IMG/VR virus record: IMGVR_UViG_2529292852_000001
Location: 32,714-96,713 of that record
Length of the DNA stretch: 64,000 nt
Strand: one strand, 5' to 3'
From: a virus
Taxonomy: Duplodnaviria > Heunggongvirae > Uroviricota > Caudoviricetes
Made by a program: the position numbers and the translations under genes. Below the pieces are notes generated by a model, which ran no database searches, was not told the DNA's origin, and worked only from the letters and a program-made list of their open reading frames with translations. Shown in pieces: positions 16,328 to 50,392 of the stretch (position 1 is the stretch's first letter; each line of letters starts with the position of its first letter).

Positions 16328-17704
16328 CTAAATATTTTCCATTTTCGTTTCTAGCATTCCATTTACATGATATAAGCTAACAATGTTTTTAACTGTGCTA
16401 GATTTACCACTTTGAAGAATAACGCTTTTCCCTCTACTAATAACACTTTTAACTCTTTCAATTCTGTTAGTTTTGGTATTTAGCACAACATCATGTGGTC
16501 TTAATTGGTAGTGATTTCGTCTAATCGAAACACGCCCCTTTTTAACTTTTTCTTTTCTAAATTGTCTTAAATTGGTGTAATTAAGCTCTCTTGAACGTCT
16601 AGTTCTACCTGAACTTAACTCTTTACCAGCTTTTTGCTTACCATCACGGCTATCAATATATTTAGCGTCATAAAATAATTGCAACACTCGGTTATTATTC
16701 CTTAACTTTTGTCTTGAATAAATATTATTTGTTCTAAAAGTTGTATCAGTCCCACCAGCGATCACAAAAGCGTCATTTAAATGTGATTTTTCAATCTCAT
16801 ACTTTTGTCTTAAGTTAGCGGTTAGATAACCTTGGGTTGTCGTATATTCATCAAAATAATCACTTAATCTTGCTGCTAAAATACTCATAAAGTAAGCACC
16901 ACGATAATCAAGCATCTTTTGTCGATTTTCTCTCAACTTAGCTAAGATACCGTTATTATGGTTAGCTTGATTATGATTAATATCTGACAGTAAAACTAAA
17001 TTATCTGGCTGATTAGATCCACCATCTTTTCTTTGAACTAAGTGATGGACTCTTAATTGACTAGCTGGATATTGTTTACCATCTAAAGCATCACGATAAT
17101 TATCTCTAGCTAGGAGATAATCTTTAATCGTCTTAAAACCATACATTTTGCCTTTTTGATATTGCCACCCTTTAATGTTTGGGTTTAATAATTTTTGATT
17201 GTCGAATGGTGTAACTTCAACGACTAAATTAGTAATTGGCAAAAACGTATATAAGCGTTTGATTTCTTTAATTGTAAAATCTAATCTATGTTGAATACTA
17301 GGAGCTAACCAACCGTCTTTGTGTCTGCGATTATCAAATCTAGCCTTACGGTATCTTAAACGATTTCTTCTAGTTCGTCTTGATTCACGTCTACTAGTAA
17401 TCCTATCTTTTTCTGATTTTCTTAGACTTTCTGACACATAATATTCACGGTTGTTACCCACAACTGATAAACCTAAGTGGAAACCAGCGTCTACTCCTAG
17501 TGTTAAATCTTGAGTATTTGTAGTAACAGGTCTAACAAATTGGATAGTATTTCTACTATTTCCGTACCATTTTGCTTGACCTGTTTTTAACCAACGGCGA
17601 ACCATACCTAATCTTGAAGTTGGCATGAGTGGTGTACCGTTGGAGTCTACTACATAAATATAATCAACTTTTTTAATTTTTGACATCATGTCAACTCCTT
17701 TCAA
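16328..17704 (-). CDS. iscB: IscB RNA-guided nuclease (PLMP domain, RuvC-I, Arg-rich bridge helix, HNH, RuvC-III). True start probably MMSKIKK at ~17689
   Basis: PLMP motif (NGTPLMPTSR), RuvC-I GVDAGFHLGLSVV, bridge RRESRRTRRNRLRYRKARFDNRR, HNH LRVHHLVQRKDGGSNQPDNLVLLSDINHNQ. The RBS AAAGGAG lies inside the annotated 5' end. Confidence 0.8.
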   Translation of the reverse strand: MKGVDMMSKIKKVDYIYVVDSNGTPLMPTSRLGMVRRWLKTGQAKWYGNSRNTIQFVRPVTTNTQDLTLGVDAGFHLGLSVVGNNREYYVSESLRKSEKDRITSRRESRRTRRNRLRYRKARFDNRRHKDGWLAPSIQHRLDFTIKEIKRLYTFLPITNLVVEVTPFDNQKLLNPNIKGWQYQKGKMYGFKTIKDYLLARDNYRDALDGKQYPASQLRVHHLVQRKDGGSNQPDNLVLLSDINHNQANHNNGILAKLRENRQKMLDYRGAYFMSILAARLSDYFDEYTTTQGYLTANLRQKYEIEKSHLNDAFVIAGGTDTTFRTNNIYSRQKLRNNNRVLQLFYDAKYIDSRDGKQKAGKELSSGRTRRSRELNYTNLRQFRKEKVKKGRVSIRRNHYQLRPHDVVLNTKTNRIERVKSVISRGKSVILQSGKSSTVKNIVSLYHVNGMLETKMENI

Positions 17705-17949
17705 TCATAATTCGCACCTAACATAAAGTTGGTACGTGTGTACCCTTCGCCAATGTTATAGGTTGGTTTAATGTTAATTACACTAAGCCTGAACTCAGCT
17801 TTGTTTAATAATCAACCGTAGTGTTTGAAACTAGGGTGGCATTCCAAAGTACCTATTTATTCAACCCTAACGTAGTTATTTAAAACTTAGGCTAATCAAC
17901 CAGCTTGTATTTCTACAAGCCACCTACCTTAGTCGGCGGTTCTGTTGAC
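17705..17949 (-). ncRNA. Putative IscB omega-RNA scaffold (upstream of iscB, guide expected at the LE junction)
   Basis: ~240 nt immediately 5' of iscB, near-identical to 36947-37194 in copy 2. IscB omega-RNAs are known to be encoded at this position. Confidence 0.5.
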
Positions 17950-25605: not shown

Positions 25606-25638
25606 TAAGCCACACCTAAATCAGATGTGGCTTTTTCG
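25606..25638 (+). terminator. Rho-independent terminator of the par operon
   Basis: GCCACACCTAAATCAGATGTGGC followed by TTTTTCG. Confidence 0.6.
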
Positions 25639-26074: not shown

Positions 26075-27328
26075 CTAGGCTAATTGTTCTAATCCTTTGT
26101 CTAGGATATTCTTTGCTGCGTTTATATCACGTATGTGGTAAGTGTTGCATACAGGACAAGTCCAACTCCTATCTTTTAGCGTTAGTTTATCAGTATCTTT
26201 TGTTCCCATAACATGCCCACATTTATTACATGTTTGTGTAGTATTTTTAGGGTTTATGGTAACAAAAGTTTTACCATATAATTCAGCTTTGTATTCTAAC
26301 TTCTGTAGGAATATTCTCCAACCCACATCAGAAATTGACATAGCTAAAGCGTGATTTTTCAACAAATTCTTACTTCTTAGATTTTCAGCCACAACCAAAT
26401 CGTGGTTCTTGATAAGTGTTATTGACATCTCGTCTAAGAATTTATTACGCTGATTACGCACTCTATTCATGAGTTTTGATACCACCATACGTTGTTTTTG
26501 ATAATTTTTGCTATCACGTAAAGAACGTCCCTCTTTCTTGGCTCTGACTTGTCTACGTGATAACTTGCGTTGTGCTTTGGCTAACCTACCCTTGATTGTT
26601 CTATAAAATCTTGGGTTAGCTACAACATTGCCTTCACTTGTTGTTAAGAAGTTATCTGTGTTTAAGTCAATTCCAACTTGAGAGTTAGTTTTAGACAGTT
26701 CCTTAACAAATGGTGTATTAGAACCTAACTGCATAGAAACGTAATAGATACCAAAAGCATTCTTAGAAATAGTAGTTGTACCAATTCTAATATCGTCTTT
26801 ATTATCTAGTAGCTTTCTATAAGAACCACTTACACGAATAATGCCCAGCTTAGGAATATTGATATGTTTATTGTCTACAAATCTAATTGAGCCAGTCCAC
26901 ATATTAACTGGTTTCTTGTTTTTATAAGTCCCACTTGTCTGATACTTTTCTTCATAAGTCTTCTTATGAAAGTTTGGTGTACCAGCATTGTGTACTTTTC
27001 TAAACATGTTCCACGCAGCTTTATATGAACGCATTGCCATATTGCGACAATAACTATCAATATAAGGGTGGTTCATATAGTAATAATGGTTTGCTAAATG
27101 GTTTTGAGCTTTCTTGCGTTGTTCTAATTCTTTAATACGATCTTGAACCATATCAATAGGTAACTTAACTTGTTTAAGTTGATATAACTCTTTATCAATT
27201 GCAACCATAGCGTTGTATACAGCCCTAGATACATCACTGTTCATCTTGATGATTTGTTTTTGCTTTGTACTAGGGTGAATACACATTTTTAAACCATAGT
27301 GATATTTCAACTCACTCATCGTTTTCAT
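26075..27328 (-). CDS. tnpB: TnpB (IS605 OrfB-type RNA-guided nuclease), 417 aa
   Basis: RuvC-I GIDLNTDN, RuvC-II LVVAENL, zinc finger CNKCG...CPVCN, RuvC-III RDINAAKNI. Confidence 0.85.
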   Translation of the reverse strand: MKTMSELKYHYGLKMCIHPSTKQKQIIKMNSDVSRAVYNAMVAIDKELYQLKQVKLPIDMVQDRIKELEQRKKAQNHLANHYYYMNHPYIDSYCRNMAMRSYKAAWNMFRKVHNAGTPNFHKKTYEEKYQTSGTYKNKKPVNMWTGSIRFVDNKHINIPKLGIIRVSGSYRKLLDNKDDIRIGTTTISKNAFGIYYVSMQLGSNTPFVKELSKTNSQVGIDLNTDNFLTTSEGNVVANPRFYRTIKGRLAKAQRKLSRRQVRAKKEGRSLRDSKNYQKQRMVVSKLMNRVRNQRNKFLDEMSITLIKNHDLVVAENLRSKNLLKNHALAMSISDVGWRIFLQKLEYKAELYGKTFVTINPKNTTQTCNKCGHVMGTKDTDKLTLKDRSWTCPVCNTYHIRDINAAKNILDKGLEQLA

Positions 27329-27420: not shown

Positions 27421-27589
27421 GTCTTATACCTATGTCATTTAACTTAGGTTCAGAACAAAGTATGACTTAAAAGTCCCTTATTTAAAGTCTTGCACCTATG
27501 CCATTTAACCTAGGTTCAGAACGTGGCGGTAGCGAAAGCAACTCATACCAAGGTCTTGCACCTACATCAATTCAACTTAGGTTCAGAAC
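27421..27589 (-). CRISPR. CRISPR-like mini-array A: 3 repeats (36-37 nt), 2 spacers (30 nt)
   Basis: Plus-strand repeat GTCTT(A/G)CACCTATG(T/C)CATTTAAC(C/T)TAGGTTCAGAAC at 27421, 27487 and 27553. Unique spacers. Confidence 0.6.
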
Positions 27590-27730
27590 CGTTGTTTTCT
27601 AACCTATATTTAATTGTGACATAAGCTTCTTGGGAACTCTCCATACTTGCGATGTACTATTGTTAGATTAACTAACTAACACCGTAGAGGTTAGAGATAT
27701 TAACCAAGCTGAAAAGAACAAGCGCCCTCC
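27590..27730 (-). ncRNA. Conserved scaffold A (~140 nt) with an anti-repeat at the array-proximal end. tracrRNA/omega-RNA-like
   Basis: One of 8-9 homologous copies. The array-proximal 30 nt (minus strand CTTATGTCACAATTAAATATAGGTTAGAA) is complementary to the repeat. Confidence 0.5.
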
Positions 27731-27783
27731 TACTAGCACTAGTGGAATCGAACCACTATTGTAGCAACCATGCGTGCCAAATT
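27731..27783 (-). ncRNA. tRNA-like mini-element (acceptor-like stem + T-arm mimic, no anticodon arm)
   Basis: Minus strand GGCACGCATGGTTGC...AGTGGTTCGATTCCACTAGTGCT. T-loop GTTCGATTC. Confidence 0.45.
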
Positions 27784-27831
27784 GTATATTATTTTCAAAC
27801 AAAAACATTAGTGAAACACACGTCAAACTCT

Positions 27832-28057
27832 GTCTTATACTATGTCTTTTTAGCTAGGTTCAGAACATATTGATTCGTACATAAAATTATAACTATGTCT
27901 TACACCTATGCCATTTAACCTAGACTAAGAACTCTAATCAAGTAGCAACTTCAACAGGTGCTGTCTTGCGCCTATGTCATTTAACCTAGGTTCAGAATAT
28001 TATCTAATATACTAAGAGTGTGTCTTGTACCTATGTCATTTAACTTAGGTTCAAAAC
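27832..28057 (-). CRISPR. CRISPR-like mini-array B: 4 repeats (first is degenerate), spacers of 29, 30 and 23 nt
   Basis: Repeats at 27832, 27897, 27963 and 28022. Confidence 0.55.
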
Positions 28058-28197
28058 CGTTGTTTTCTAACCTATATTTAATTGTGACATAAGTTTCTTG
28101 GGAACTCTCCATACTTGCGATGTTTTACCGTTAGATTAACCAACAACACCGTAGAGGTTAGAGATATTAACCAAGCTGTCGAGAACAAGCGTCCTCC
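28058..28197 (-). ncRNA. Conserved scaffold B with anti-repeat
   Basis: Homologous to scaffold A (CGTTGTTTTCTAACCTATATTTAATTGTGACATAAG...GAGAACAAGCGTCCTCC). Confidence 0.5.
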
Positions 28198-28862
28198 AAA
28201 TTTTATTATCTAACGCTCAAATAACACTTCAAACATGAGCTTTCACTCTGCTTATAATGTGCTACCGTTTATTATGTGAACGTCCCACAAGGTCTGAGCA
28301 ATAAGGAGCTACCCTATTACTTCCTCGTGCTATTTAACGACGTGGCTACTATGATAAGTACCAACTTTCAGGCGATCATTCAGAACTTTGTTTTTATTTT
28401 AATCTTAATTGTTGTATGTGGATTTTAAGTCCAAGACAACAATTACTGTCTGTAATCTTGATGCCATTGCCCTACTTGTTCTTGTTTCCGTTGTTATAGC
28501 TCAGTTTCCTAAGCGTCAAGGCAAACACTGTCTTTGGTTATTCCCATCGCATCACTTAGCTACCACACTAAGCTGCCAATGGGTTATTCCCACACCGTGA
28601 GCGTCTATTTTATCCAGTGCCAACGGTCAACAAAGCACTAACGTCACACACTTCCACATACGTACCAAACGTCCTAGCTTTTACCAGGTTTGATAGTTAT
28701 TGCTAACAATCTCTCGACTTATCTAAGCTATCACTCAGACTACATCTACTACGAATTACAGGTACATATCCGACAAGATTTGACTAAAACCCTTATGCAA
28801 TCGGTTATGCTTGAAGCGTTATTTGAACGGTAAATAATTTCTGATTCTGGATCCTCTATATA
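28198..28862. other. Unassigned ~665-nt noncoding segment, higher GC than its surroundings. Possible structured RNA
   Basis: No convincing ORF (the only listed one, 63 aa, looks spurious). Sits between array C and scaffold B. Partial resemblance to 40965-41221. Confidence 0.2.
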
Positions 28863-29228
28863 GCCTTACACCTATGTCATTTAACATAGGTTCAGAACAG
28901 AAAACATTCTTTTCTTTTATAGAATATTGTCTTCAACCTATGTCATTTAGCCTAGGTTCAGAACTAAAAACGATGAAAGCGATAGATGATTTTGGTCTTA
29001 TACCTATGTCATTTAACTTAGATTCAGAACCCCACCACAGTTGCAAAACAAACTCAAATAGTCTTACACCTATGCCATTTTACTTAGGCTCAGAACCAAT
29101 CTCGCTATTATCCAAGAATGTAATTAGTCTTACACCTATGTCATTTAACCTAGGTTCAGAACCATCATGAAAGGAGGTGAGATTGTGGCAGAGTCTTGCA
29201 CCTATGCCATTTAACTTAGGTTCAGAAC
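28863..29228 (-). CRISPR. CRISPR-like mini-array C: 6 repeats (36 nt), 5 spacers (29-30 nt)
   Basis: Repeats at 28863, 28929, 28995, 29061, 29127 and 29193. On the minus strand it lies directly downstream of the scaffold, which lies directly downstream of the tnpB stop. Confidence 0.65.
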
Positions 29229-29369
29229 CGTTGTTTTCTAACCTATATTTAATTGTGACATAAGCTTCTTGGAAACTCTTCGGACTTGCAATATCTCTCT
29301 GTTAGATTAACTAACTGATACTGTAGAGGTTAAAGATATTTACCAAGCTGTCGAGAACAAGCGTCCTCC
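29229..29369 (-). ncRNA. Conserved scaffold C with anti-repeat, in the position expected for a TnpB omega/reRNA (immediately 3' of tnpB)
   Basis: Homologous to the other scaffolds. Begins (minus) GGAGGACGCTTGTTCTCGACAGCTTGG right after the tRNA-like element that overlaps the tnpB stop. Confidence 0.5.
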
Positions 29370-29370
29370 T

Positions 29371-29436
29371 ATAACGATGGCAGGAATCGAACCTGCATCT
29401 GTTACCTTGCCTTACCGTTAGGCTACATCGCTACTT
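29371..29436 (-). ncRNA. tRNA-like element with acceptor stem, D-arm (GCCTAACGGTAAGGC) and T-arm but no anticodon arm. Overlaps the tnpB stop codon
   Basis: Minus strand AGCGATGTAGCCTAACGGTAAGGCAAGGTAACAGATGCAGGTTCGATTCCTGCCATCGTT. Only 13 nt lie between the D- and T-arms. Confidence 0.5.
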
Positions 29437-30873
29437 GTTTCTTCTTTAGGTGTGGTTTTATTTTTAGCTCCACACTTAGTACATGTCCACTTTTCATCTT
29501 GCGTGATAACCGTACGTTCATGCCCACATTTCTTGCAAGTATCATTCATCTTATCTAGTAAATCCAAGCCTTCATCTAAGATGTTTTTAGCTGCGTTTAT
29601 GTCTTGATCATGGTGAGAATTACATACAGGACAAGTCCAATTACGATCCTTTAATTTAAGGTTGTGCTTAATGTAACCACAAGTATGGCAACGCTTTGAA
29701 GTTGGTGACCAACGATCAATAAACACAATCTTTTTATCAGCCCAGTCCATCATGTAAGTGAGCGTATCTCTAATTTCACGAAAGTTTGATCTAGTGATTG
29801 CTCTAGCACGGTATTTGTTCTTTTCCATGTCTGAAACAGCTAGGTCTTCCATAACGATTACATCATATTCATTAGCAAGCTTTGAACATGTCTTTTTAAT
29901 ATAGTCTTTTTTCAAGTTCTTAATACGTAAGTGTAACTTAGCAATTTTCTTTTTGTTCTTTTGGTAATTGCTACGTTCAGCTAAAGTAGGAACATGCTTT
30001 GGAATTAAGGCTTTTTTATTATCTTCTTCAATAATTGCGACCTCTTTTTTCCATTGTTCATACTTACGACTACGCTTTATGTTTTCTTTTTCAATCTTTT
30101 GTTCTAATTTTCTGATTTTGTCATATGGTAATTGATACCTTGTGCCATCTTGTAAAACAATATGACTATTACCTGTTACGTTTAAGTCAATGCCAGCTGC
30201 TAAACCAGTTCTAGGACGATCTACAGTATGTTCAGCTTGTTCAAACACAATTGACGCATACCAAGTATCGCTAGATTCATGCTTAATTGTTACTTTATAC
30301 AAACGACCATCACTAGGATAATGGTTAGCAATTTCAATTAAGCCTAACTTAAACTTCTTTAATTTACCTACTCTAAGGTAATTTCCATCTTCGCTTATAC
30401 CACAAACTTGAGCGCCTGAAGTATAGCTTCCGTTATTGTCAACGTCCATCGTTGTTTTAAATCTAGGAATACCAAAGTGTCTAGGGTTTTTCAAATGGTT
30501 GCTCATCGCTGTTTTTAAAGTACGTAAAGTGTAACTATACATACTAGTGTCAGCATCTTTCAAAGTCCAACCACTTTTAAATACAGTTTCATCAGCATCG
30601 TAAATTGCCTTAGTTGATAATTCACGTACACCTTTGAACAAATCACGTTGTTCTTCCCATGACATTCTTTCAATACGTTTGTAAACTTCTTTGCTTTGTT
30701 TATTTTTAGGTAAAGCTTGAACTTCATCTAATTCACTAACTGGCTTATAAACTTCAGCTAGTAACGCATTCCACATTTTGATGTTAGCAAACATATTAAA
30801 CGTTAAGTATGCTTGTTGTTCTTTAGTAGGATAAATTCTAATTCTACGACTTTCTAAAACTTTTTCTTCCATT
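29418..30873 (-). CDS. tnpB: TnpB paralog (~485 aa) with an extra C-terminal zinc ribbon. The annotated 551-aa ORF is probably over-extended at the 5' end
   Basis: RuvC-I GIDLNVTGN, RuvC-II VIVMEDL, ZnF CHTCG...CPVCN, RuvC-III QDINAAKNI, then a second ribbon CKKCG...CTKCG. The first 67 codons of the listed ORF are homologous to the noncoding scaffold. The internal Met (MEEKVLESRR) has RBS AAGGAG 9 nt upstream. Confidence 0.75.
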
Positions 30874-30879
30874 TTTTCC

Positions 30880-31073
30880 AACTCCTTTTTTGAGTTAACA
30901 TGTAATTTACGCATAGTCTTTTGGCTGACTACACCTAACGCTAACCCTTCCACAATGGACGTCTTTATTTGTGCCATCAGCACTTTTTGGGAACTCTTCA
31001 ACAAAGAAATGCAATTAGCAACACTTTGTTTGCGAAGATGTTTACCAAACTGTGAAGAGCAAGCACCCTCCAA
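30880..31073 (-). ncRNA. Decayed scaffold copy (5' leader of tnpB) without an adjoining repeat
   Basis: Minus strand GGAGGGTGCTTGCTCTTCACAGTTTGGTAAACATCTT...GAAGAGTTCCCAAAAAGTGCTGATGGCACAAATAAAG aligns with the scaffold 5' and 3' blocks. Confidence 0.45.
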
Positions 31074-31074
31074 T

Positions 31075-31138
31075 AACGATGGTAGGAATCGAACCTACGT
31101 CGCCTCGCTTTGCTCTACCATTGAGCTACATCGTTGTT
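31075..31138 (-). ncRNA. tRNA-like element (7-bp acceptor, canonical D-arm TAGCTCAATGGTAGAGCA, T-arm, no anticodon arm), immediately upstream of the tnpB leader
   Basis: Minus strand AACGATGTAGCTCAATGGTAGAGCAAAGCGAGGCGACGTAGGTTCGATTCCTACCATCGTTA. Confidence 0.5.
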
Positions 31139-31165
31139 TTGACTTTAATTAAGCCCATGATTTCA

Positions 31166-31399
31166 TTCTTACACCTATGTCAATTCAACTAGGTTCAGAA
31201 CATTTGATTGCACTATCGAACTCATCACGTCGTCTTACACCTATGTCAATTCAACTAGGTTCAGAACTATCCTAAGAGTAATTGGAGTCCACTCGAAGTC
31301 TTACACCTATGTCAATTTAACTAGGTTCAGAACGGATCTCCCAAGCGAAGGAATCGAAGGCACGTCTTGCGCCTATGTCAATTTAACTAGGCTCAGAAC
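31166..31399 (-). CRISPR. CRISPR-like mini-array D: 4 repeats (variant GTCTTACACCTATGTCAATTCAACTAGGTTCAGAAC), 3 spacers of 30 nt
   Basis: Repeats at 31166 (5' end degenerate), 31232, 31298 and 31364. Confidence 0.6.
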
Positions 31400-31539
31400 C
31401 ATTGTTTTCTAACCTATATTTAATTGTGACATAAGCTTCTTGGGAACTCCCCATGCTTGCGATGCCTTACTGTTAGTTTAACCAACAACACCGTAGAGGC
31501 TAGAGATATTAGCCAAGCTGTCGAGAACAAGCGTCCTCC
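31400..31539 (-). ncRNA. Conserved scaffold D with anti-repeat
   Basis: Homologous to scaffolds A-C. Confidence 0.5.
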
Positions 31540-31592
31540 TATTAGCATTAGCGGAGTCGAACCACTATTAAAGTAACCGTACATGCCAACCT
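31540..31592 (-). ncRNA. tRNA-like mini-element
   Basis: TATTAGCATTAGCGGAGTCGAACCACTATTAAAGTAACCGTACATGCCAACC (plus strand). Confidence 0.4.
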
Positions 31593-31669
31593 ACAATAAA
31601 CATAAAGGAGATGCAGGCTAAATTCCTGCGATAGACACAATGTACGCAGGGGTTAAGAAGAAACCCCCT

Positions 31670-31720
31670 ATTAGCACTGGTAGAATCGAACCACCATTAA
31701 GCAACCATACGTGCCAACCT
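31670..31720 (-). ncRNA. tRNA-like mini-element preceded by a GGGG..CCCC hairpin
   Basis: TTAGCACTGGTAGAATCGAACCACCATTAAGCAACCATACGTGCCAACC. Confidence 0.4.
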
Positions 31721-31774
31721 TGAGTAAATCATTCAGTACAATCACACCGCCGCCACGAACCCTAGATGGCGGCA

Positions 31775-31945
31775 GTCTTACACCTATGTCAATTCAACTA
31801 GGTTCAGAACCCTAACCTATATTTAATTGTGACACAAGTTTCTTGGGAACTCTTCTTACTTACAATGTTGCTAACTAAGTAATCTAAGTTGCAACACTGT
31901 AGAGGCTAAAAATATTAACCAAGCTGTCGAGAACAAGCGTCCTCC
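31775..31945 (-). ncRNA. Solo repeat (31775-31810) fused to a scaffold copy (31811-31945)
   Basis: One perfect D-type repeat followed directly by CCTAACCTATATTTAATTGTGACACAAG...GCGTCCTCC. Confidence 0.5.
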
Positions 31946-31996
31946 TATTAGCACTAGTGGAATCGAACCACTACAAGATAACCGTATGTACTAGCC
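31946..31996 (-). ncRNA. tRNA-like mini-element
   Basis: TATTAGCACTAGTGGAATCGAACCACTACAAGATAACCGTATGTACTAGCC. Confidence 0.4.
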
Positions 31997-32067
31997 TCAT
32001 AAGTAACTTTATAGAAAAGGAGTTTGTTACATAACCACTCATACATGGGAGTATTATTACACTCCCT

Positions 32068-32123
32068 ATTAGCATAGCTAGAATCGAACTAACTTTTATT
32101 CCAAAATGCTTATATTTGCTAAG
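32068..32123 (-). ncRNA. tRNA-like mini-element (variant type, as at 40806-40860) preceded by a GGGAGT..ACTCCC hairpin
   Basis: ATTAGCATAGCTAGAATCGAACTAACTTTTATTCCAAAATGCTT. Confidence 0.35.
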
Positions 32124-32132
32124 TTATGATAA

Positions 32133-32432
32133 GTCTTACACCTATGTCAATTCAACTAGGCTCAGAACCTCGTCTAAGGCTTTTTAATTGTTCTTCTGGT
32201 CTTACACCTATGTCATTTAACCTAGGTTCAGAACTGAAAGGAGATGATTAAATTGAGCAATATAGTCTTACACCTATGTCAATTCAACTAGGTTCAGAAC
32301 CTACTTTGAAATCACTACATCATAACCACGGTCTTACACCTATGTCAATTCAACTAGGTTCAGAACCCTTGACTAATAGTGATAAACGTATCAGATGTCT
32401 TACACCTATGTCAATTCAACTAGGTTCAGAAC
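32133..32432 (-). CRISPR. CRISPR-like mini-array E: 5 repeats (36 nt), 4 spacers (30 nt)
   Basis: Repeats at 32133, 32199, 32265, 32331 and 32397. Confidence 0.65.
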
Positions 32433-32575
32433 CGTTATTTTCTAACCTATATTTAATTGTGACATAAGTTTCTTGGGAACTCTTCTTACTTGCAATGGCG
32501 CTAACTAAGTAATTTTAATTGCGACACTGTAGAGGCTAAAGATATTAACCAAGCTGTCGAGAACAAGCGTCCTCC
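32433..32575 (-). ncRNA. Conserved scaffold E with anti-repeat (middle section is of the variant family)
   Basis: CGTTATTTTCTAACCTATATTTAATTGTGACATAAG...CTGTAGAGGCTAAAGATATTAACCAAGCTGTCGAGAACAAGCGTCCTCC. Confidence 0.5.
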
Positions 32576-32640
32576 AATAGCGATGGCAGGAGTCGAACCC
32601 ACTTGATTGCTCTACCGTTGAGCTACACCGCTACACCAAA
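32576..32640 (-). ncRNA. tRNA-like element with a canonical D-arm (TAGCTCAACGGTAGAGCA) and T-arm, no anticodon arm
   Basis: Minus strand GTAGCGGTGTAGCTCAACGGTAGAGCAATCAAGTGGGTTCGACTCCTGCCATCGCTATT. Confidence 0.45.
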
Positions 32641-32981
32641 ATGTACATAACGAATAAAGATAAAGTTAAGATTATAAGGGTTGTGCTAATGCTTACAGGA
32701 ACGATAGAGGCTTACATGTAGTTTACTGATGTCCCTGTAGGCTTAACCCTTTGCCTTACGTTTATTATGATACACTATCTCGCACCCTAAGTCAAATGTT
32801 TTTGTATACTTTTTTAAAATAAAATTCAAAAAAGTTGAAAAATAAAAAAAGCCACAAGCCTAGGTAACCCTAAGTGTAGCTTTCTTTTACACAGCAAAAC
32901 AAACATTAAGGAGCCTTAACTGTTTTTCGCTAGTTTTATTCTAGCATAAACATTAGTGTTTTCCCAGCGGTTGTAGCTGAG

Positions 32982-35569: not shown

Positions 35570-36946
35570 CTAAATATTTTCCATTTTCTTTTCCAACATT
35601 CCATTTACATGATATAAGCTAATTACATTTTTAACTGTGCCATATTTACCGTTTTGGAAAACAATGCCCTTTCCTCTACTATTAACTCCTTTGACTCTTT
35701 CAATCCTGTTAGTTCTGGTATTTAACACAACATCATGTGGTCTTAATTGATAATGACCTCTTCTAATCGAAACACGACCCTTTTTAACTTTTTCTTTTCT
35801 AAATTGTCTTAAATTGTCATAATTAAGCTCTTGGGATCGTCTAGTTCTCCCTGAACTTAACTCTTTACCAGCTTTTTGTTTACCATCGCGACAATCAATA
35901 TACTTAGCGTCATAAAACAACTGTAATATACGATTATTATTCCTTAACTTTTGTCTCGAATAAACATTGTTTGTTCTAAGGGTTGTATCAGTTCCACCAG
36001 CAATCACAAAAGCGTCATTTAAGTGAGATTTTTCAATCTTATACTTTTGTCTTAGGTTAGCGGTTAGATAACCTTGAGTTGTCGTATATTCATCAAAATA
36101 ATTGCTTAATCTTGTTGCTAAAATGCTCATAAAATAAGCTCCACGATAATCAATCGTCTTTTGCCGATTTTGTCTTAATTTAGCTAAGACACCATTATTG
36201 TGATTAGCTTGATTATGGTTAATATCTGACAATAAAACTAAGTTATCTGGCTGATTAGAACCACCATCTTTTCGCTGCACTAAGTGATGAACTCTTAATT
36301 GACTAGCTGGATATTGTTTACCATCTAAAGCATCACGATAGTTATCTCTAGCTAGTAGATAATCCTTAATCGTCTTAAAACCATACATCTTACCTTTTTG
36401 ATACTGCCAGGCTTTAATATTTGGATTAGCTAGTTTTTGATTATCAAATGGTGTAACTTCAACGACTAAATTAGTAATGGGTAAAAACGTATATAAACGT
36501 TTGATTTCTTTAATTGTAAAATCTAATCTGTGTTGAATACTAGGAGCTAACCAGCCGTCTTTACGTCTACGATTATCAAATCTAGCTTGACGGTATCTTA
36601 AATGTCCTCTTCGAGTACGTCTTAATTCTCTTCGACTAGTAATTCGATCTTTTTCTGACTTTCTTAAGCTTTCTGACGCATAATATTCACGTTGGTTTCC
36701 AACAACAGATAATCCTAAGTGAAAACCAGCATCTACTCCTAAAGTTAAATTTTGTGTATTTGTAGTAACAGGTCTGACAAATTGGATAGTCTTACGACTA
36801 TTTCCGAACCATCTTGCTTGACCTGTTTTTAACCAACGACGCACCATGCCTAATCTTGAAGTTGGCATGAGTGGTGTGCCGTTGGAGTCTACTACATAGA
36901 TATAATTAAATTTTTTGATTTCTGACATCATGCCAACTCCTTTCAA
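35570..36946 (-). CDS. iscB: IscB RNA-guided nuclease, copy 2
   Basis: Same motifs as copy 1 (PLMP, RuvC, HNH), with a handful of substitutions. Confidence 0.8.
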   Translation of the reverse strand: MKGVGMMSEIKKFNYIYVVDSNGTPLMPTSRLGMVRRWLKTGQARWFGNSRKTIQFVRPVTTNTQNLTLGVDAGFHLGLSVVGNQREYYASESLRKSEKDRITSRRELRRTRRGHLRYRQARFDNRRRKDGWLAPSIQHRLDFTIKEIKRLYTFLPITNLVVEVTPFDNQKLANPNIKAWQYQKGKMYGFKTIKDYLLARDNYRDALDGKQYPASQLRVHHLVQRKDGGSNQPDNLVLLSDINHNQANHNNGVLAKLRQNRQKTIDYRGAYFMSILATRLSNYFDEYTTTQGYLTANLRQKYKIEKSHLNDAFVIAGGTDTTLRTNNVYSRQKLRNNNRILQLFYDAKYIDCRDGKQKAGKELSSGRTRRSQELNYDNLRQFRKEKVKKGRVSIRRGHYQLRPHDVVLNTRTNRIERVKGVNSRGKGIVFQNGKYGTVKNVISLYHVNGMLEKKMENI

Positions 36947-37194
36947 TAATTGTAATTCGCACCTAACATAAAGTTGGTACGTGTGTACCCTTCGCCAATG
37001 TTATAGGTTGGTTTAATGTTAATTACACTGAGCCTGAACTCAACTCTGTTTAATAATTAACCGTAGAGTCTAAGACTAGGGTGGCATCTTAGAGTACCTA
37101 TCTATTCAACCCTAACGTAGTTACTTAAAACTTAGGCTAATCAACCAGCTTGCATTTCTACAAGCCACCTACTTTAGTCGGTGGTTCTGTTGAC
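36947..37194 (-). ncRNA. Putative IscB omega-RNA scaffold, copy 2
   Basis: Conserved with 17705-17949. Confidence 0.5.
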
Positions 37195-39537: not shown

Positions 39538-39557
39538 CTCCTTGATATAATCATTTA

Positions 39558-39719
39558 GTCTTAGCTTATGCTTTCAACTAGGATCAGAACCTATATCCAA
39601 TTGTGACATAAGCTTCCTGGGAACTCTTTGTACTTGCAATGCCGCTAACTAAGTAATCTAAATTGTAGCACTGTAGAGGTTGAAGATATTAACCAAGCTG
39701 AAAAGAACAAGCGTCCTTC
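39558..39719 (-). ncRNA. Degenerate solo repeat (39558-39590) + scaffold copy (39591-39719), directly upstream of gene 38782-39537
   Basis: ...TTCAACTAGGATCAGAAC then CTATATCCAATTGTGACATAAGCTTCCTGGGAACTC...GAAAAGAACAAGCGTCCTTC. Confidence 0.45.
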
Positions 39720-39786
39720 AAATAGCGATGGCAGGAGTCGAACCTGTATCTCATGCCTTGCTCTACCGTTGAGCTACATCGCTACG
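39720..39786 (-). ncRNA. tRNA-like element with a canonical D-arm and T-arm, no anticodon arm
   Basis: Minus strand GCGATGTAGCTCAACGGTAGAGCAAGGCATGAGATACAGGTTCGACTCCTGCCATCGCT. Confidence 0.45.
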
Positions 39787-39869
39787 CTTACACTTTTTAT
39801 TTTAGGGAGGAAAAAGTGTAGCCCCATACACATTCCGATTAGTTGGCTCGCCCTTGTTTTTCAACAAGG

Positions 39870-40860
39870 ACAATTGGCACTGGTAGGATCGAACTACCAT
39901 TAAGCAACCGTGCGTGCCAACCGTGAATTAATGTTATGATTTATTTAGGGCTTATTTTTGCCCTATTGGCAAACAAGGAGTCGAACCTTGACGTCACAAC
40001 CGTGTTACCAACTGTATTTCCAAAGGTGAACTAACGAAATACAAGGAACTGTCTTGCAAACACCCACTCTTGTCAGATGTACAGTCTTAGTTTGTTTAAC
40101 AGTTCGTTTTGACTTTTTTCATGGCCCTGTACAGGAGGCAAAGCCCAGCACCAAAAACAACATAAGGTAGGTAGTTAGGATTAACCTTAACCTATTGGCA
40201 CTAGCAGAGTCGAACCGCTATGAAAGCAACCGTGCGTGCCAACTTATTGAGAGAAAAAACTTTAAAGGAAAGATATTTTTGTTGTCCCACTAGGGTTATT
40301 TTCGCCTTCGTTTTACCAAAGGCAATTAGCACCAGTGGAGTCGAACCACTGTAAAAGCAACCGTACGTGCCAACCAAATCATAAATATTAAATCAAGGAG
40401 TTATGTTAGTTAGAGTAATTTTTTTATTACTCTAAAGAGAAAAAGTTTTGAGTTTGTAGCTTAATGCTACAATTGGCACTAACAGAATCGAACTGTTACA
40501 AGACAACCATGCGTGCCAGCCGATAAGTAACTTTTAAAAAAGGAGTAATATACAACCATCTTAGGGTTTATTCAAGCCCTATTGGTGTTAGCGGAATCGA
40601 ACCGATATACAGCAACCATGCACACCAACCAATATTTTAAGAGTTTATATAATAAGGCATTTAAGCCTAAATAAGAGGAAATAGTTTTAGGGTTGTTACA
40701 CCCTATTGGTAGCCAAGGAATCGAACCTTGATACAACCACTCTACCAACCTATAAGTAATAGTTTAAGTGCAAGTGTGAATGCCACTGTGAAGCTTGTCA
40801 GTGGCAATAAGCATAGCTAGAGTCGAACTAGCTTTTATTCCAAAATGCTTGTTAGATAAA
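39870..40860 (-). repeat. Tandem array of 8 tRNA-like mini-elements (~48 nt each: 5-bp acceptor-like stem, 3-bp mini D-hairpin with a YGGT loop, T-arm with a GTTCGAYTC loop), spaced 60-120 nt apart, each followed on the minus strand by an AGGGTT..AACCCT hairpin
   Basis: Units at ~39873, 39962, 40193, 40323, 40468, 40573, 40697 and 40806. Stems covary while loops are conserved. Confidence 0.55.
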
Positions 40861-40870
40861 CCTGTGATAT

Positions 40871-40964
40871 GTCTTATCTTATGTTTGTTTTAGCTAAGTT
40901 CAGAACATAACTCTCTACACAGTATTCTGTCTTATACTTACGTCATTTTAACTAGGTTCAAAAT
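40871..40964 (-). CRISPR. Two degenerate repeats with a 22-nt spacer (array remnant)
   Basis: GTCTTATCTTATGTTTGTTTTAGCTAAGTTCAGAAC and GTCTTATACTTACGTCATTTTAACTAGGTTCAAAAT. Confidence 0.35.
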
Positions 40965-41221
40965 GTCAAGAAATATATATATCCTATGTCAACTGCCCCA
41001 GTCTAAAGACATGGAGCTTGTAACTCACGACCTTACGGTCAGTGGTAATAACGCAACTTCGTTGCTCCCACACTATACATGGCTACATCATTGGGTGGTT
41101 GACAACACCCACTTAACTAACACGTTTACGCATTAGTTGTTAATTCAAATTTAGGTTGTTCTTGTCCACTAATATACTGAGTTCCAAGTAATTGGATATT
41201 CATTGATATGGTGGTCTTTTA
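40965..41221. other. Unassigned ~260-nt noncoding segment, relatively GC-rich. Possible structured RNA
   Basis: No ORF. Lies between a scaffold and the repeat remnant. Weak similarity to part of 28198-28862. Confidence 0.2.
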
Positions 41222-41377
41222 CCTATAATAATTCAATTAGGATCAGAACCTATATTTAATTGTGACACAAGCTTCTTGGGAACTTTCCATGCTTGCGATG
41301 TTTTACCGTTAGATTAACCAACGTTACACCGTAGAGGCTAGAAATATTTACCAAGCTGTCAAGAACAAGCGTCCTCC
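41222..41377 (-). ncRNA. Degenerate solo repeat + scaffold copy
   Basis: ...AATTAGGATCAGAAC then CTATATTTAATTGTGACACAAGCTTCTTGGGAACT...GTCAAGAACAAGCGTCCTCC. Confidence 0.45.
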
Positions 41378-41900
41378 AATTAGCACTAACGGAATTGAAC
41401 CGTTATTACAGCAACCATGCGTGCCAACTCAATAATTACTATAGAAAGGTTTTACTATGGCAAAACACTAGCATTACCATCTTTTAGGGTTTATCCAACC
41501 CTATTGGCACTAGCGGAGTCGAACCGCTATGAAAGTAACCGTACGTGCCAGCCGTAAGTCGAATCGAATATATAAAGGAGTAAAGAGATGCGAGTATTCG
41601 CAATCTTTTAGGGTCTGTTTCAACCCTATTGGCAGCCAAGGACTTGAACCTTGATGCAACCATTCTGCCAACCAATTTAATTAATTCAATAAAATAAAGG
41701 AGAATAGGGTCTATGGCAACCCTATTGGCACTGGTAGAATCGAACCACCATAAAAGCAACCATGCGTGCCACACCCAGTTAGTAAGTAACATATAATAAA
41801 AGGAGCGATGCAAACAATGTTTGCAGCCTAGAGCTAAGCTTAACCTAGCTCTAATTAGCAGGTAGGGAATCGAACCCTAGCTTAAGCAACCATGCCTGCT
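41378..41900 (-). repeat. Tandem array of 5 more tRNA-like mini-elements with preceding AGGGTT..AACCCT hairpins
   Basis: Units at ~41385, 41498, 41617, 41716 and 41846 (e.g. GGCACTAGCGGAGTCGAACCGCTATGAAAGTAACCGTACGTGCCAGCC). Confidence 0.55.
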
Positions 41901-48449: not shown

Positions 48450-49056
48450 ATGAAAGCAAATGAAGTAATGAAATTATTACAAATTAGTCGTTCCACTTTA
48501 CTAAGATGGCGAAAAGATGGCATTTTAAAAGCTACTAAATTGCCTTCTGGGCAATATGATTGGGACGCTAATTCTGTTTTTAAAATATTAAATAAAGGTG
48601 AAATTCGTGGTGTTTATTTATATGCTAGAGTAGTCTACACCTAAACAAAAACAAGACCTTGAAAACCAAATTGAAAACCTGCAAAGTTTTGCGATGAAAA
48701 ATGGTTATCAAGTTAAAGGTCTATACAAAGATATAGCTAGTGGAATTTCTTTTGAAAGAAGAAAGGAGTTTTTTGAATTATTAGACCTTGTAATTGGTGG
48801 TAAAGTATCAAAGGTTATTATCACCTACAAGGATAGATTAAGTCGTGTTGGTTTCGATCTGTTTAAATACTTATTTTCCAAGTATCATACCGAGATAATT
48901 GTGATGTCAGAATTAACCGATAAAAAGGCAGACCAACAAGAAATATTTGAAGAAATCATTAGCTTGTTGCACGCATTTTCAATGAGAATGTACTCGAGTA
49001 GAAGAAAGAAAATTAAAGAAGCTTTGGAAGATAAGGAGGTGAACAAGGATGGTTAA
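48450..49056 (+). pseudogene. tnpA: IS607-type TnpA serine recombinase, disrupted by a +1 frameshift at the catalytic-Ser codon (~48633)
   Basis: ORF1 ends ...LYARVVYT*, and the next frame reads STPKQKQDLENQ...MKNGYQV. Deleting G48633 restores YARVSTPKQ. Confidence 0.55.
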
Positions 49057-50392
49057 AAAGCAAAAATCAAAGAAGAAAGTCATAAAAACTTTTAAAGAAG
49101 TAAGAGCAGAGAAAACGGAAGTTCAATATGAGTATTTGGTGGAAAAGCATATTATTAAATCTAATGATGCACGTTATGCTATTTTAGATAAATACGCTCA
49201 TCTATCCAATAATGTCTACAACCAAGCTCTATATCGTTTTAGACAGGCTTTCTTTAAGGGTAAGTGGCTGAGTTACGAAAAACTAGACAAATCATTTAAA
49301 CAATCTTTTAATCAAAAGGACTGTATGCTGTATCGTTCTATGAAAAGTGTACATTTAGCTCAACAAATTTTAAAGTTAGTCAATCAAAATATGACTTCTT
49401 GGAATAAAGCTCGTAAAGCATATTTAAAGGCACCGCAAAAGTTCACTGGCAAGCCTAAAATACCCAAATATAAACCCAAAGGCGGTAAAAATATTGTTAT
49501 CGTAGATAACCAAACTGCTAAATTAAGAGCTAATGGAATTGTAGAAATACCAGTGATGGATAGCTTGAAAATTAAGTTACAACACAAAGAAACTAATAAA
49601 ATTCAACAAGTTAGAGTCATTCCTAAAAATAATACTTTTGTAATTGAAATAGTTTATAAAACTAACAAGGTTATTGACTACAAAGAAGATAATGGACGCT
49701 ATTTAACGATTGACCCAGGACTTGATAATGCCTTTACGTTGGCATCTAATGTTAAAGGATTTAAACCTGTCATTATTAATGGACGTCCTTTAAAGTCAGT
49801 CAATCAATACTATAACAAGCAAAAAGCTAGATTAACTAGAATTTATGACTTGTCAAAACAAAATCGTAATACTAAACGTTTAAATAAACTTGATTTTTAT
49901 CGTAATCAAAAAATGTTAAAATTCGCTCATGAAGCAAGCAAACGCATTGTTGAGATAGCGTTAAGCCATGAGTTAAACACGATTGTTATTGGTAAAAATA
50001 AAGGACAAAAACGTTCTAGTAATATGGGAAAACGAATAAACCAAAACTTTATTGGAATTCCACATCAAAAAATGATTGAGATGATTGAATATAAAGCTAA
50101 TTTAGCAGGGATAGTCGTAATTCAAGCTAACGAAGCTTATACAAGTCAAACTTCATTTTTAGATAATGAAATACCAATTAACCAAAATGGTGATAAAGCT
50201 CGTAAACGTAAAGGGTTAAGTCCTGTCAAAAGACGCGTTAAACGTGGTTTATTTAAATCAAATAAAGGTATCTTAATTAACGCTGATGTTAATGGAGCGT
50301 TACAGATATTAAGAAAAGTAGTACCAAATGCTTTTGCTGACGGTATAGATGGAATCGGATTAGTTCCAGTTAAGCTAAACTTAAATTTCTAA
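49049..50392 (+). CDS. tnpB: TnpB (IS607/IS1341-type, no zinc finger)
   Basis: RuvC-I TIDPGLDN, RuvC-II IVIGKNKG, EAYTSQTSFLD, RuvC-III NADVNGALQI. Confidence 0.75.
   Translation: MVKKQKSKKKVIKTFKEVRAEKTEVQYEYLVEKHIIKSNDARYAILDKYAHLSNNVYNQALYRFRQAFFKGKWLSYEKLDKSFKQSFNQKDCMLYRSMKSVHLAQQILKLVNQNMTSWNKARKAYLKAPQKFTGKPKIPKYKPKGGKNIVIVDNQTAKLRANGIVEIPVMDSLKIKLQHKETNKIQQVRVIPKNNTFVIEIVYKTNKVIDYKEDNGRYLTIDPGLDNAFTLASNVKGFKPVIINGRPLKSVNQYYNKQKARLTRIYDLSKQNRNTKRLNKLDFYRNQKMLKFAHEASKRIVEIALSHELNTIVIGKNKGQKRSSNMGKRINQNFIGIPHQKMIEMIEYKANLAGIVVIQANEAYTSQTSFLDNEIPINQNGDKARKRKGLSPVKRRVKRGLFKSNKGILINADVNGALQILRKVVPNAFADGIDGIGLVPVKLNLNF

Follow-up and report, generated by a model that had tools for sequence, protein, structure and literature searches.

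Mini CRISPR arrays fused to omega-RNA-like scaffolds and linked to a TnpB-grade nuclease on a Ligilactobacillus salivarius-type plasmid: a probable TranC-like system

About 50 independent captures of CRISPR (clustered regularly interspaced short palindromic repeat) arrays by TnpB are recognised, and candidate types V-U6 to V-U45 have been catalogued (Altae-Tran et al. 2023, PMC10691335; PMC12669027). TranC systems are transposon-CRISPR intermediates with a split right-end RNA (reRNA), described by Jin et al. (Cell 2025; cited by PMC13565253 and 10.64898/2026.03.27.714800). Here we describe a locus at ~32.8 to 25.6 kb of a 64,000-nt stretch of IMG/VR record IMGVR_UViG_2529292852_000001 (the window). 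The locus encodes a candidate effector, TnpB1, together with five mini CRISPR arrays, and is probably an RNA-guided nuclease system, carried on a plasmid and intermediate between TnpB and Cas12, of a TranC-like and type V-U-like kind. It has in common with TranC and V-U6-U45 a TnpB-grade RuvC protein stably linked to short arrays with no cas1 or cas2, and a scaffold that appears to be derived from omega-RNA (reRNA) and pairs with the repeat via an anti-repeat; the described systems have repeats of 32-38 nt and 3-20 repeats per array and are often phage- or plasmid-borne. The kind has been known since 2023-2025, and the concept is no longer without precedent, V-U6-U45 (PMC10691335) and TranC being already described. 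There are differences, however. For a single effector the locus has at least eight scaffold copies, and every copy is joined in cis to an array of its own. In most relatives the arrays precede tnpB, whereas they are downstream in almost all conserved associations of PMC10691335. Additionally, tRNA-like elements and a ROOL RNA punctuate the cassettes, and the spacers appear to target plasmids. What is new is thus the presence of multiple cis-fused scaffold-array cassettes per effector, tRNA-like elements lacking an anticodon arm at the scaffolds, a conserved linkage to ROOL and an apparently nascent array behind a second gene, tnpB2.

The array anatomy, RNA structure and strand, linkage to the TnpB1 clade, spacer turnover and protospacers reported below were all computed. 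The repeat consensus GTTCTGAACCTANNTNAAWTGRCATAGGTNNAAGAC, allowing up to 3 mismatches, has 21 matches between 27421 and 32432, all on the minus strand, and none in 100 shuffles (0 expected by chance). The 36-nt repeats group into arrays of 5, 4, 6, 4 and 3 repeats plus one solo repeat, as originally predicted. The spacers are 30 nt with a single exception of 23 nt in array B, so that the earlier description of strictly 29-30-nt spacers does not hold throughout. These are fixed-length direct repeats with unique spacers, as expected of CRISPR arrays, and the terminal repeats are degenerate, like CRISPR trailer ends. Each array abuts a conserved scaffold of ~140 nt, which had also been predicted, and the order on the minus strand is scaffold, anti-repeat, repeat 1 and spacers. 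From 5' to 3' on that strand the elements are as follows.

32433-32577, minus strand: scaffold E, putatively omega-RNA-derived and like a tracrRNA (trans-activating CRISPR RNA), with a 3' anti-repeat
32133-32432, minus strand: array E, 5 repeats and 4 spacers of 30 nt; spacer 2 has a 100% match in small L. salivarius plasmids
31811-31947, minus strand: scaffold with a shortened anti-repeat loop, before the solo repeat
31775-31810, minus strand: solo repeat, then a GC hairpin (31747-31774)
31400-31541, minus strand: scaffold D
31166-31399, minus strand: array D, 4 repeats; the first spacer is common to two related plasmids
30961-31073, minus strand: scaffold variant without a repeat in the 5' leader of tnpB1, ending ...AAATAAAGAC; kept in relatives L001, L024 and L080
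29418-30872, minus strand: tnpB1, candidate effector TnpB1 (29421-30872), 484 aa (Pfam, NCBIfam)
29229-29371, minus strand: scaffold C
28863-29228, minus strand: array C, 6 repeats and 5 spacers, terminal repeat degenerate
28058-28199, minus strand: scaffold B
27832-28057, minus strand: array B, 4 repeats, of which the last is degenerate; one spacer has 23 nt
27589-27732, minus strand: scaffold A
27421-27588, minus strand: array A, 3 repeats

An alignment of 26 distinct scaffold copies from the window and its relatives gives a consensus of 5 helices and 23 pairs, 12 of them with compensatory changes. In this alignment 97.3% of the cells are paired in comparison with 46-54% when the partners are slid, and none of 500 shuffles reaches the observed values. 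Read on the minus strand, several pairs are mainly G-U, where the plus strand would have A-C. Consistent with this, the folding energy of a unit of scaffold plus repeat is -46.4 kcal/mol (z -3.0) for the minus strand but only -31.4 kcal/mol (z -0.1) for the plus strand. Because of the covariation, the G-U pairs and the minus-strand z score, we place the scaffold RNA on the tnpB strand. The 3' anti-repeat pairs with the first repeat as a hairpin in cis, and this is predicted in all lineages. The hairpin has a conserved base stem, CYUAUGUCA/UGACAUAGG, and leaves 7-8 nt of the repeat single-stranded before the spacer. Both the predicted complementarity between repeat and array-proximal scaffold end and the proposed co-folding of the two are therefore borne out in silico.

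The distal part of the hairpin is naturally deleted in the solo unit, in L001c and in L014, and the base stem and 7-8-nt tail are retained; L014 is the extreme case, where only CCUAUGUcaaauaACAUAGG, UACACAAC and the spacer are left. Each free repeat can itself fold an equivalent hairpin, ACCUA...UAGGU, which fits an origin of the repeats as duplications of the terminal stem-loop of the scaffold. Parallels are Cas12f (type V-F) with its tracrRNA and the engineered Cas12f/TnpB single guides. Cas12f also has a miniature effector, the same order of scaffold, anti-repeat:repeat duplex, short tail and 3' guide, and a 5' T-rich protospacer-adjacent motif (PAM) like the one proposed below; the natural loop truncations parallel the trimming of engineered single-guide RNAs (sgRNAs). 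In contrast with Cas12f, TnpB1 is closer to bona fide TnpB, and scaffold and first repeat are joined in the genome itself and not by engineering. In 185,579 species-representative genomes there were 5 matches to a 20-nt motif of the scaffold, all in unrelated phyla and taken as chance, so the element is absent from those genomes.

The repeat-less scaffold in the tnpB1 leader has the hairpin GUGCUGAUGGCAC and the end AAAUAAAGAC, and each of the four related plasmids carries it. After it come ~55 nt (to 30873) that are conserved and do not vary, and then the ribosome-binding site. This scaffold may be a fixed-guide or autoregulatory RNA; its fixed 'guide' has no second match within the window.

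TnpB1 matches the NCBIfam model guided_TnpB with 183 bits. The RuvC triad D229/E342/D424 is invariant in the clade alignment (A2) and aligns to the TnpB RuvC motifs. The closest solved structures (PDB, Foldseek) are the ISDra2 and ISFba1 TnpBs. LaTranC, the one published TranC compared, is fourth and matches distantly, in the C-terminal RuvC region alone (E 2.5e-15). As in TranC, the protein is nearer to TnpB than to the established Cas12 subtypes. TnpB1 belongs to a narrow clade, P0001-P0023, with identities of at least 47% in alignment A2; the next matches are at ~30%. Protein scans of metagenomes and viral contigs gave only three further close relatives, the remainder being ordinary TnpBs at ~25-30% identity.

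All the clade loci with enough upstream DNA have a homologous scaffold and an array of 36-nt repeats and 30-nt spacers on the tnpB strand. Scaffold and array lie just upstream of tnpB in L012, L013, L014/L015, L018 and L087-L091, and the repeat and scaffold sequences diverge in step with the protein. In L016 (48% identity), the homologous scaffold directly follows the tnpB stop codon, which is the canonical omega-RNA position, and the array comes next. This suggests that the scaffold is a cognate omega-RNA derivative of the TnpB1 lineage. Such homology to an omega-RNA position, together with the predicted anti-repeat pairing, would fit a TranC guide, and the clade-wide association of a RuvC effector with arrays is in keeping with type V-U.

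In sequence and structure the best match is to TnpB and omega-RNA of IS200/IS605 elements (e.g. ISDra2), a likeness that includes the scaffold homology in L016. In contrast with these insertion sequence (IS) elements, neither TnpA nor IS ends are seen beside tnpB1, the gene is single-copy with no multicopy spread, and multi-spacer arrays stand in place of the single flank-derived guide. TnpB1-clade genes occur in 1 of 72,556 plasmid records and in 0 of 50,697 phage records, a rarity which argues against TnpB1 being a mobile IS.

The window is, judged by what it encodes, a megaplasmid of L. salivarius type. It carries genes for RepA_N, ParA, an Alp7A/ParM-like protein, a DnaB-like helicase, an FtsK/SpoIIIE protein, a sortase and GbpC adhesins. 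Searching its ten large unknown open reading frames (ORFs) against PHROGs gave 0 phage proteins, which indicates a plasmid and not a phage. The DNA flanking the locus is 86-96% identical to L. salivarius plasmids, and a 20-kb megablast against phages gave no match; a distant search of the region gave a ROOL segment of an Aerococcus phage as its sole match. Among plasmid records the locus is shared only by NZ_CP123973.1 (166.6 kb; L001), at 85% identity over 62%. There are no Cas1, Cas2, Cas4 or Cas9 Pfam domains in window ORFs of at least 100 aa, and no cas genes are annotated on the complete plasmid NZ_CP123973.1. The predicted absence of cas1, cas2, cas4 and cas9 thus stands. The accompanying statement that two TnpBs are, besides IscB, the only nuclease genes does not stand, since there is a third TnpB, of IS607 type. 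Of the first two, TnpB1 alone is linked to the 36-nt arrays; TnpB2, which is 26% identical to it, comes with an omega scaffold and an array of a different type.

The window, L001, L024 and L080 encode TnpB1 proteins that are 96-97% identical but have only few spacers in common. Spacer content therefore varies among close relatives, as in CRISPR arrays. Window spacer E2 has a 100% match in at least 8 small L. salivarius plasmids. A spacer of an IMG/VR relative has a 100% match to three tandem copies beside parM on the megaplasmid NZ_CP117984.1, and that NZ_CP117984.1 region is also matched, with 1 mismatch, by the form that window spacer C5 has in L024. On the guide-sense strand the 5' flanks of the protospacers are TTTTTTA, TTTTTT, TTTTTG and TTTTTTT. 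There are thus three independent L. salivarius plasmid protospacers, a small sample, with an adjacent 5' TTTTN motif, and this T-rich flank resembles the PAM of type V or the transposon-adjacent motif (TAM) of TnpB. The spacer search that had been suggested thus gave these three protospacers in plasmids and none in phages. Taken together, the covariation, clade co-divergence, L016 homologue, spacer turnover and protospacers support the earlier view of a TnpB/Cas12 intermediate with arrays fused to scaffolds.

Among L093 and L095 (protospacer at 1501-1530) and L094 (959-2022), the protospacers of the small mobilizable L. salivarius plasmids are in intergenic DNA that has no annotation. About 1.1 kb from the small-plasmid protospacer there is a mobQ relaxase gene in one record and lnu(A) in another. 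The megaplasmid protospacer lies within a ~496-bp tandem repeat beside parM. Searches with the spacers of tnpB2, L012, L014, L016, L018 and L088 gave no meaningful match in plasmids or phages. One spacer of the phage-like relative L012 (5854-5883) matches the ROOL of L014, L015, L087 and L088 with 1-2 mismatches, in comparison with 4 mismatches to its own ROOL; the 5' flank is AGTTGG, not T-rich. The sequence match suggests that this spacer may target the ROOL loci of competitors.

The cassettes are punctuated by tRNA-like elements, minihelices and a ROOL RNA, and the block has candidate transcription signals at its two ends.

32767-32795, minus strand: sigma-70-like promoter candidate TTGACT-17-TATCAT, a consensus match only, upstream of the whole non-coding RNA and tnpB block
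32578-32632, minus strand: tRNA-like element without anticodon arm (Rfam tRNA, 38 bits), arm replaced by 1 nt; its discriminator is directly followed by scaffold E
31948-31995, minus strand: T-arm/acceptor minihelix with no D or anticodon arm, abutting the scaffold at 31811-31947
31542-31589, minus strand: minihelix abutting scaffold D; another at ~31671-31718
31074-31135, minus strand: tRNA-like element without anticodon arm (Rfam, 52 bits), arm replaced by 8 nt
29372-29432, minus strand: tRNA-like element without anticodon arm (Rfam, 49 bits), arm replaced by 7 nt; overlaps the tnpB1 stop codon
28218-28828, minus strand: ROOL RNA (Rfam RF03087), after array C and with scaffold B directly behind it
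27733-27780, minus strand: minihelix abutting scaffold A
25607-25633, minus strand: intrinsic terminator closing the block

The three tRNA-like elements fold as acceptor, D and T arms. ARAGORN calls no tRNA here and there is no complete cloverleaf, so the elements are tRNA-like only. They stop 1-2 nt short of the scaffolds, and CCA is not encoded. The minihelices have the consensus TTGGCAC...GGTTCGAYTCC...GTGCCAA, and their stems covary across ~18 copies. ROOL scores 231 bits against a gathering threshold of 99 and is thus a member of the family. The order of ROOL followed by a scaffold is also found in L001 (11434-12034), L012 (4743-5308) and L014 (5072-5639). Strong terminators are found only outside the block, upstream at 33273-33243 and after the tnpB2 array at 25633-25607. 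The neighbourhood of ROOL, scaffold, array and tnpB is retained in lineages whose TnpB1 is only ~64-69% identical to that of the window. A paper on an L. salivarius long non-coding RNA (PMC5643018) was considered as a match and rejected; the gene context is different, and CRISPR and repeats go unmentioned.

In the mechanism that we propose, transcription, tRNA-like processing, loading, cleavage and the source of new spacers are deduced from this arrangement. The effector would be TnpB1, a TnpB-grade RuvC nuclease, and the ~140-nt scaffold would be its omega-RNA/reRNA-derived, tracr-like RNA. Scaffold and mini CRISPR array would form one RNA on the tnpB strand, and the whole block is probably read as one or a few long transcripts. 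With the anti-repeat pairing in cis, scaffold, repeat 1 and spacer 1 would make up a single guide of natural origin; the repeat-spacer units further on, each with a copy of the terminal hairpin, presumably rely on a scaffold in trans. CCA-less tRNA precursors are substrates of RNase Z in Bacillota. The tRNA-like elements abutting the scaffolds are probably processing signals at which host RNase P and RNase Z would cut, and cleavage after the discriminator would generate the scaffold 5' ends. The guides would then direct TnpB1 to DNA with a 5'-TTTTN motif. The known targets are other L. salivarius plasmids, and this suggests that the likely role of the system is the exclusion of competing replicons. 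We speculate that the geometry of 36-nt repeats and 30-nt spacers could mean that a type II-A module of the host acquires the spacers in trans.

A more far-reaching version, which we hold tentatively and think somewhat less probable than its negation, is that the locus is a natural polycistronic operon of tRNA-like elements and guide RNAs, in which tRNA mimics and minihelices serve as RNase P/Z punctuation and give many single guides to one TnpB-grade nuclease in a ROOL island. Engineered polycistronic tRNA-gRNA (tRNA-guide RNA) arrays likewise have tRNA-shaped elements directly 5' of guide scaffolds; in contrast, the elements here are natural, bacterial and without anticodon arms, and are putative processing signals. 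RNA processing driven by tRNA-like structures is described for mascRNA/MALAT1 and for plant mitochondrial t-elements (PMC1920247, PMC8457004). If this version is correct, the locus would be the first natural counterpart of the engineered arrays. It would also show array birth under way via duplications at the 3' end of the tnpB2 omega-RNA, and both the passage from TnpB to Cas12 and a possible link to ROOL would become directly testable in a Lactobacillus that can be cultured.

Several observations weigh against a functional TnpB1-guide system. The PAM is founded on three independent protospacers. The spacers have no match in phages, and most have no database match at all. A scaffold is not always adjacent to a tRNA-like element; in L012 and L014 it is preceded by ROOL, in L091 by a promoter-like site and in L016 by tnpB. 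Finally, the adaptation genes cas1 and cas2 are absent from window ORFs of at least 100 aa and unannotated on NZ_CP123973.1, although the same is true of most V-U and TranC systems. Plasmid-borne type IV and V-M systems also have arrays on a plasmid, no adaptation genes and anti-plasmid spacers, but their effectors belong to other families, whereas TnpB1 has a predicted nuclease-competent RuvC domain.

These observations could mean that the locus is a set of relics, in which arrays and scaffolds decay and recombine in a highly transcribed tRNA/ROOL island and have no present guide function. The degenerate and solo repeats, truncated loops, repeat-less scaffold, irregular spacers and fragments at 39.5-41.4 kb would all be expected of relics, as would the missing adaptation genes and unmatched spacers. 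We nevertheless consider this unlikely in view of the purifying covariation across the 26 distinct scaffold copies, the intact and conserved RuvC triad, the different spacer content of loci that are 96-97% identical, and the existence, in present-day plasmids of this species, of perfect protospacers whose flanks agree. It is also improbable that the RNAs are decoys or regulators, acting as RNA anti-CRISPRs or as guides that affect transcription or copy number and do not lead to cleavage of foreign DNA. Solitary repeat units are carried by mobile elements as RNA anti-CRISPRs, the scaffold in the tnpB1 leader is followed by a fixed, conserved 'guide', and the targets are intergenic and partition-proximal in plasmids. 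The repeats, however, are cognate to the scaffold of a co-encoded TnpB, the catalytic residues are intact, and variable spacers with a PAM-like flank suit targeting.

A reading of the arrays on the plus strand, as orphan type II-like arrays that form a natural Cas9-style single guide for a chromosomal Cas9 with a 3' NAAAA PAM, has some attraction because the topology is mirror-symmetric. The plus-strand order suits a Cas9 single guide, repeats of 36 nt and spacers of 30 nt are sizes typical of type II-A, and, on the opposite strand, the T-rich flank reads as an A-rich PAM at the 3' side. The repeat is presumably also loosely like lactobacillar II-A repeats, which we treat only as a lead. We rejected this reading, which appears very improbable. 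The plus-strand fold (z -0.1) is no better than shuffled, in comparison with -3.0 for the minus strand; G-U pairs in the covarying helices would be A-C mismatches; and there is no plus-strand terminator after the scaffold. No cas9 was found in the window or on NZ_CP123973.1, the scaffold and repeat diverge in step with the TnpB1 relatives on contigs where no cas9 is visible, and L016 has a scaffold homologue at the omega-RNA position of a tnpB. Least credible of all is the view of TnpB1 as a common IS200/IS605 homing nuclease that has the arrays next to it by happenstance. Pfam and NCBIfam do class it as TnpB, and genuine IS-type TnpB and IscB copies are nearby, but beside tnpB1 itself TnpA and IS ends are not seen, the gene is single-copy and its clade is almost lacking in the plasmid and phage records searched. 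Additionally, the adjoining array and scaffold are kept across relatives of 50-97% identity.

If the locus is indeed a TranC-like system, several stages on the way from transposon nuclease to CRISPR effector would be present in one locus of a culturable host: a genomic single guide, truncated guide hairpins, multiplied cassettes and a neighbouring omega-RNA that is apparently duplicating into an array. The sequences point to a small nuclease of 484 aa for which an sgRNA design is ready-made and the PAM is simple and T-rich. They also suggest bacterial use of tRNA-like processing for guide multiplexing, and would link the TnpB1 system to inter-plasmid warfare and place it beside the ROOL RNA.

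Downstream of array A there is a separate system, that of tnpB2.

26075-27328, minus strand: tnpB2, 417 aa
25638-26074, minus strand: tnpB2 omega-RNA scaffold (to 25909), then a mini-array with 28-nt repeats GTACTACCCATGCGTACATGGGATAGAC and 33-nt spacers

The tnpB2 omega scaffold ends ...CGATGGGATAGAC and is followed by 3-5 copies of GTACTACCCATGCGTACATGGGATAGAC and then by the terminator. The array was defined by pattern search; Tandem Repeats Finder missed it because the spacers differ. The L001 orthologue of tnpB2 (65% identical) has a related scaffold but no such array. This suggests that the tnpB2 array, which looks newly born, may have arisen from the 3' end of the omega-RNA. At two places, 40929-41160 (minus strand) in the window and 13900-14190 in L001, an omega end of the tnpB2 type (...GTCTTTAGAC TGGGGYAGTTGAC) runs straight into repeats of the 36-nt type; there is no tnpB after the one in the window. 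The junctions suggest that an element of the tnpB2 type may have inserted beside an array and that the modules recombined. Plasmid NZ_CP123973.1 has three genes annotated as TnpB family, each of 1257 nt like the tnpB2 orthologue.

Outlying copies of scaffold and repeat span 39556-41378 on the minus strand.

41378-41250, minus strand: scaffold, with a repeat at 41249-41214
40964-40929 and 40906-40871, minus strand: repeats with a tnpB2-type omega remnant
39783-39723, minus strand: tRNA-like element, with a scaffold at 39722-39592 and a degenerate repeat

In the same region (39720-41900, minus strand) there are ~12 tandem minihelices, each a 7-bp acceptor stem plus T arm and lacking D and anticodon arms, at a spacing of ~100-130 nt. 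Their acceptor and T stems covary, and most are followed by a small hairpin, AGGGnn...nnCCCT, in which the sequence varies and the stem complementarity is retained. Across the window the minus strand has 22 T-loop motifs and the plus strand 3.

Elsewhere in the window there are two IscB genes (458 aa, RRXRR domain) at 35570-37194 and 16328-17949, both on the minus strand, with a HEARO omega-RNA upstream of each (135 and 130 bits). The third TnpB gene belongs to the element at 48694-50392.

49049-50392, plus strand: third TnpB, 447 aa, IS607-type; a serine-resolvase ORF overlaps its start

Carriers of the TnpB1 system also encode nucleoside-salvage genes and a large kinase-phosphatase-RNA ligase (AAA_33, Metallophos and RNA_lig_T4_1 domains; tRNA-repair type of T4 Pnkp/Rnl1), which is found in L012 (13165 onward), L014 (13343 onward), L018 (6505-8640) and NZ_CP123973.1 (41946-44351).

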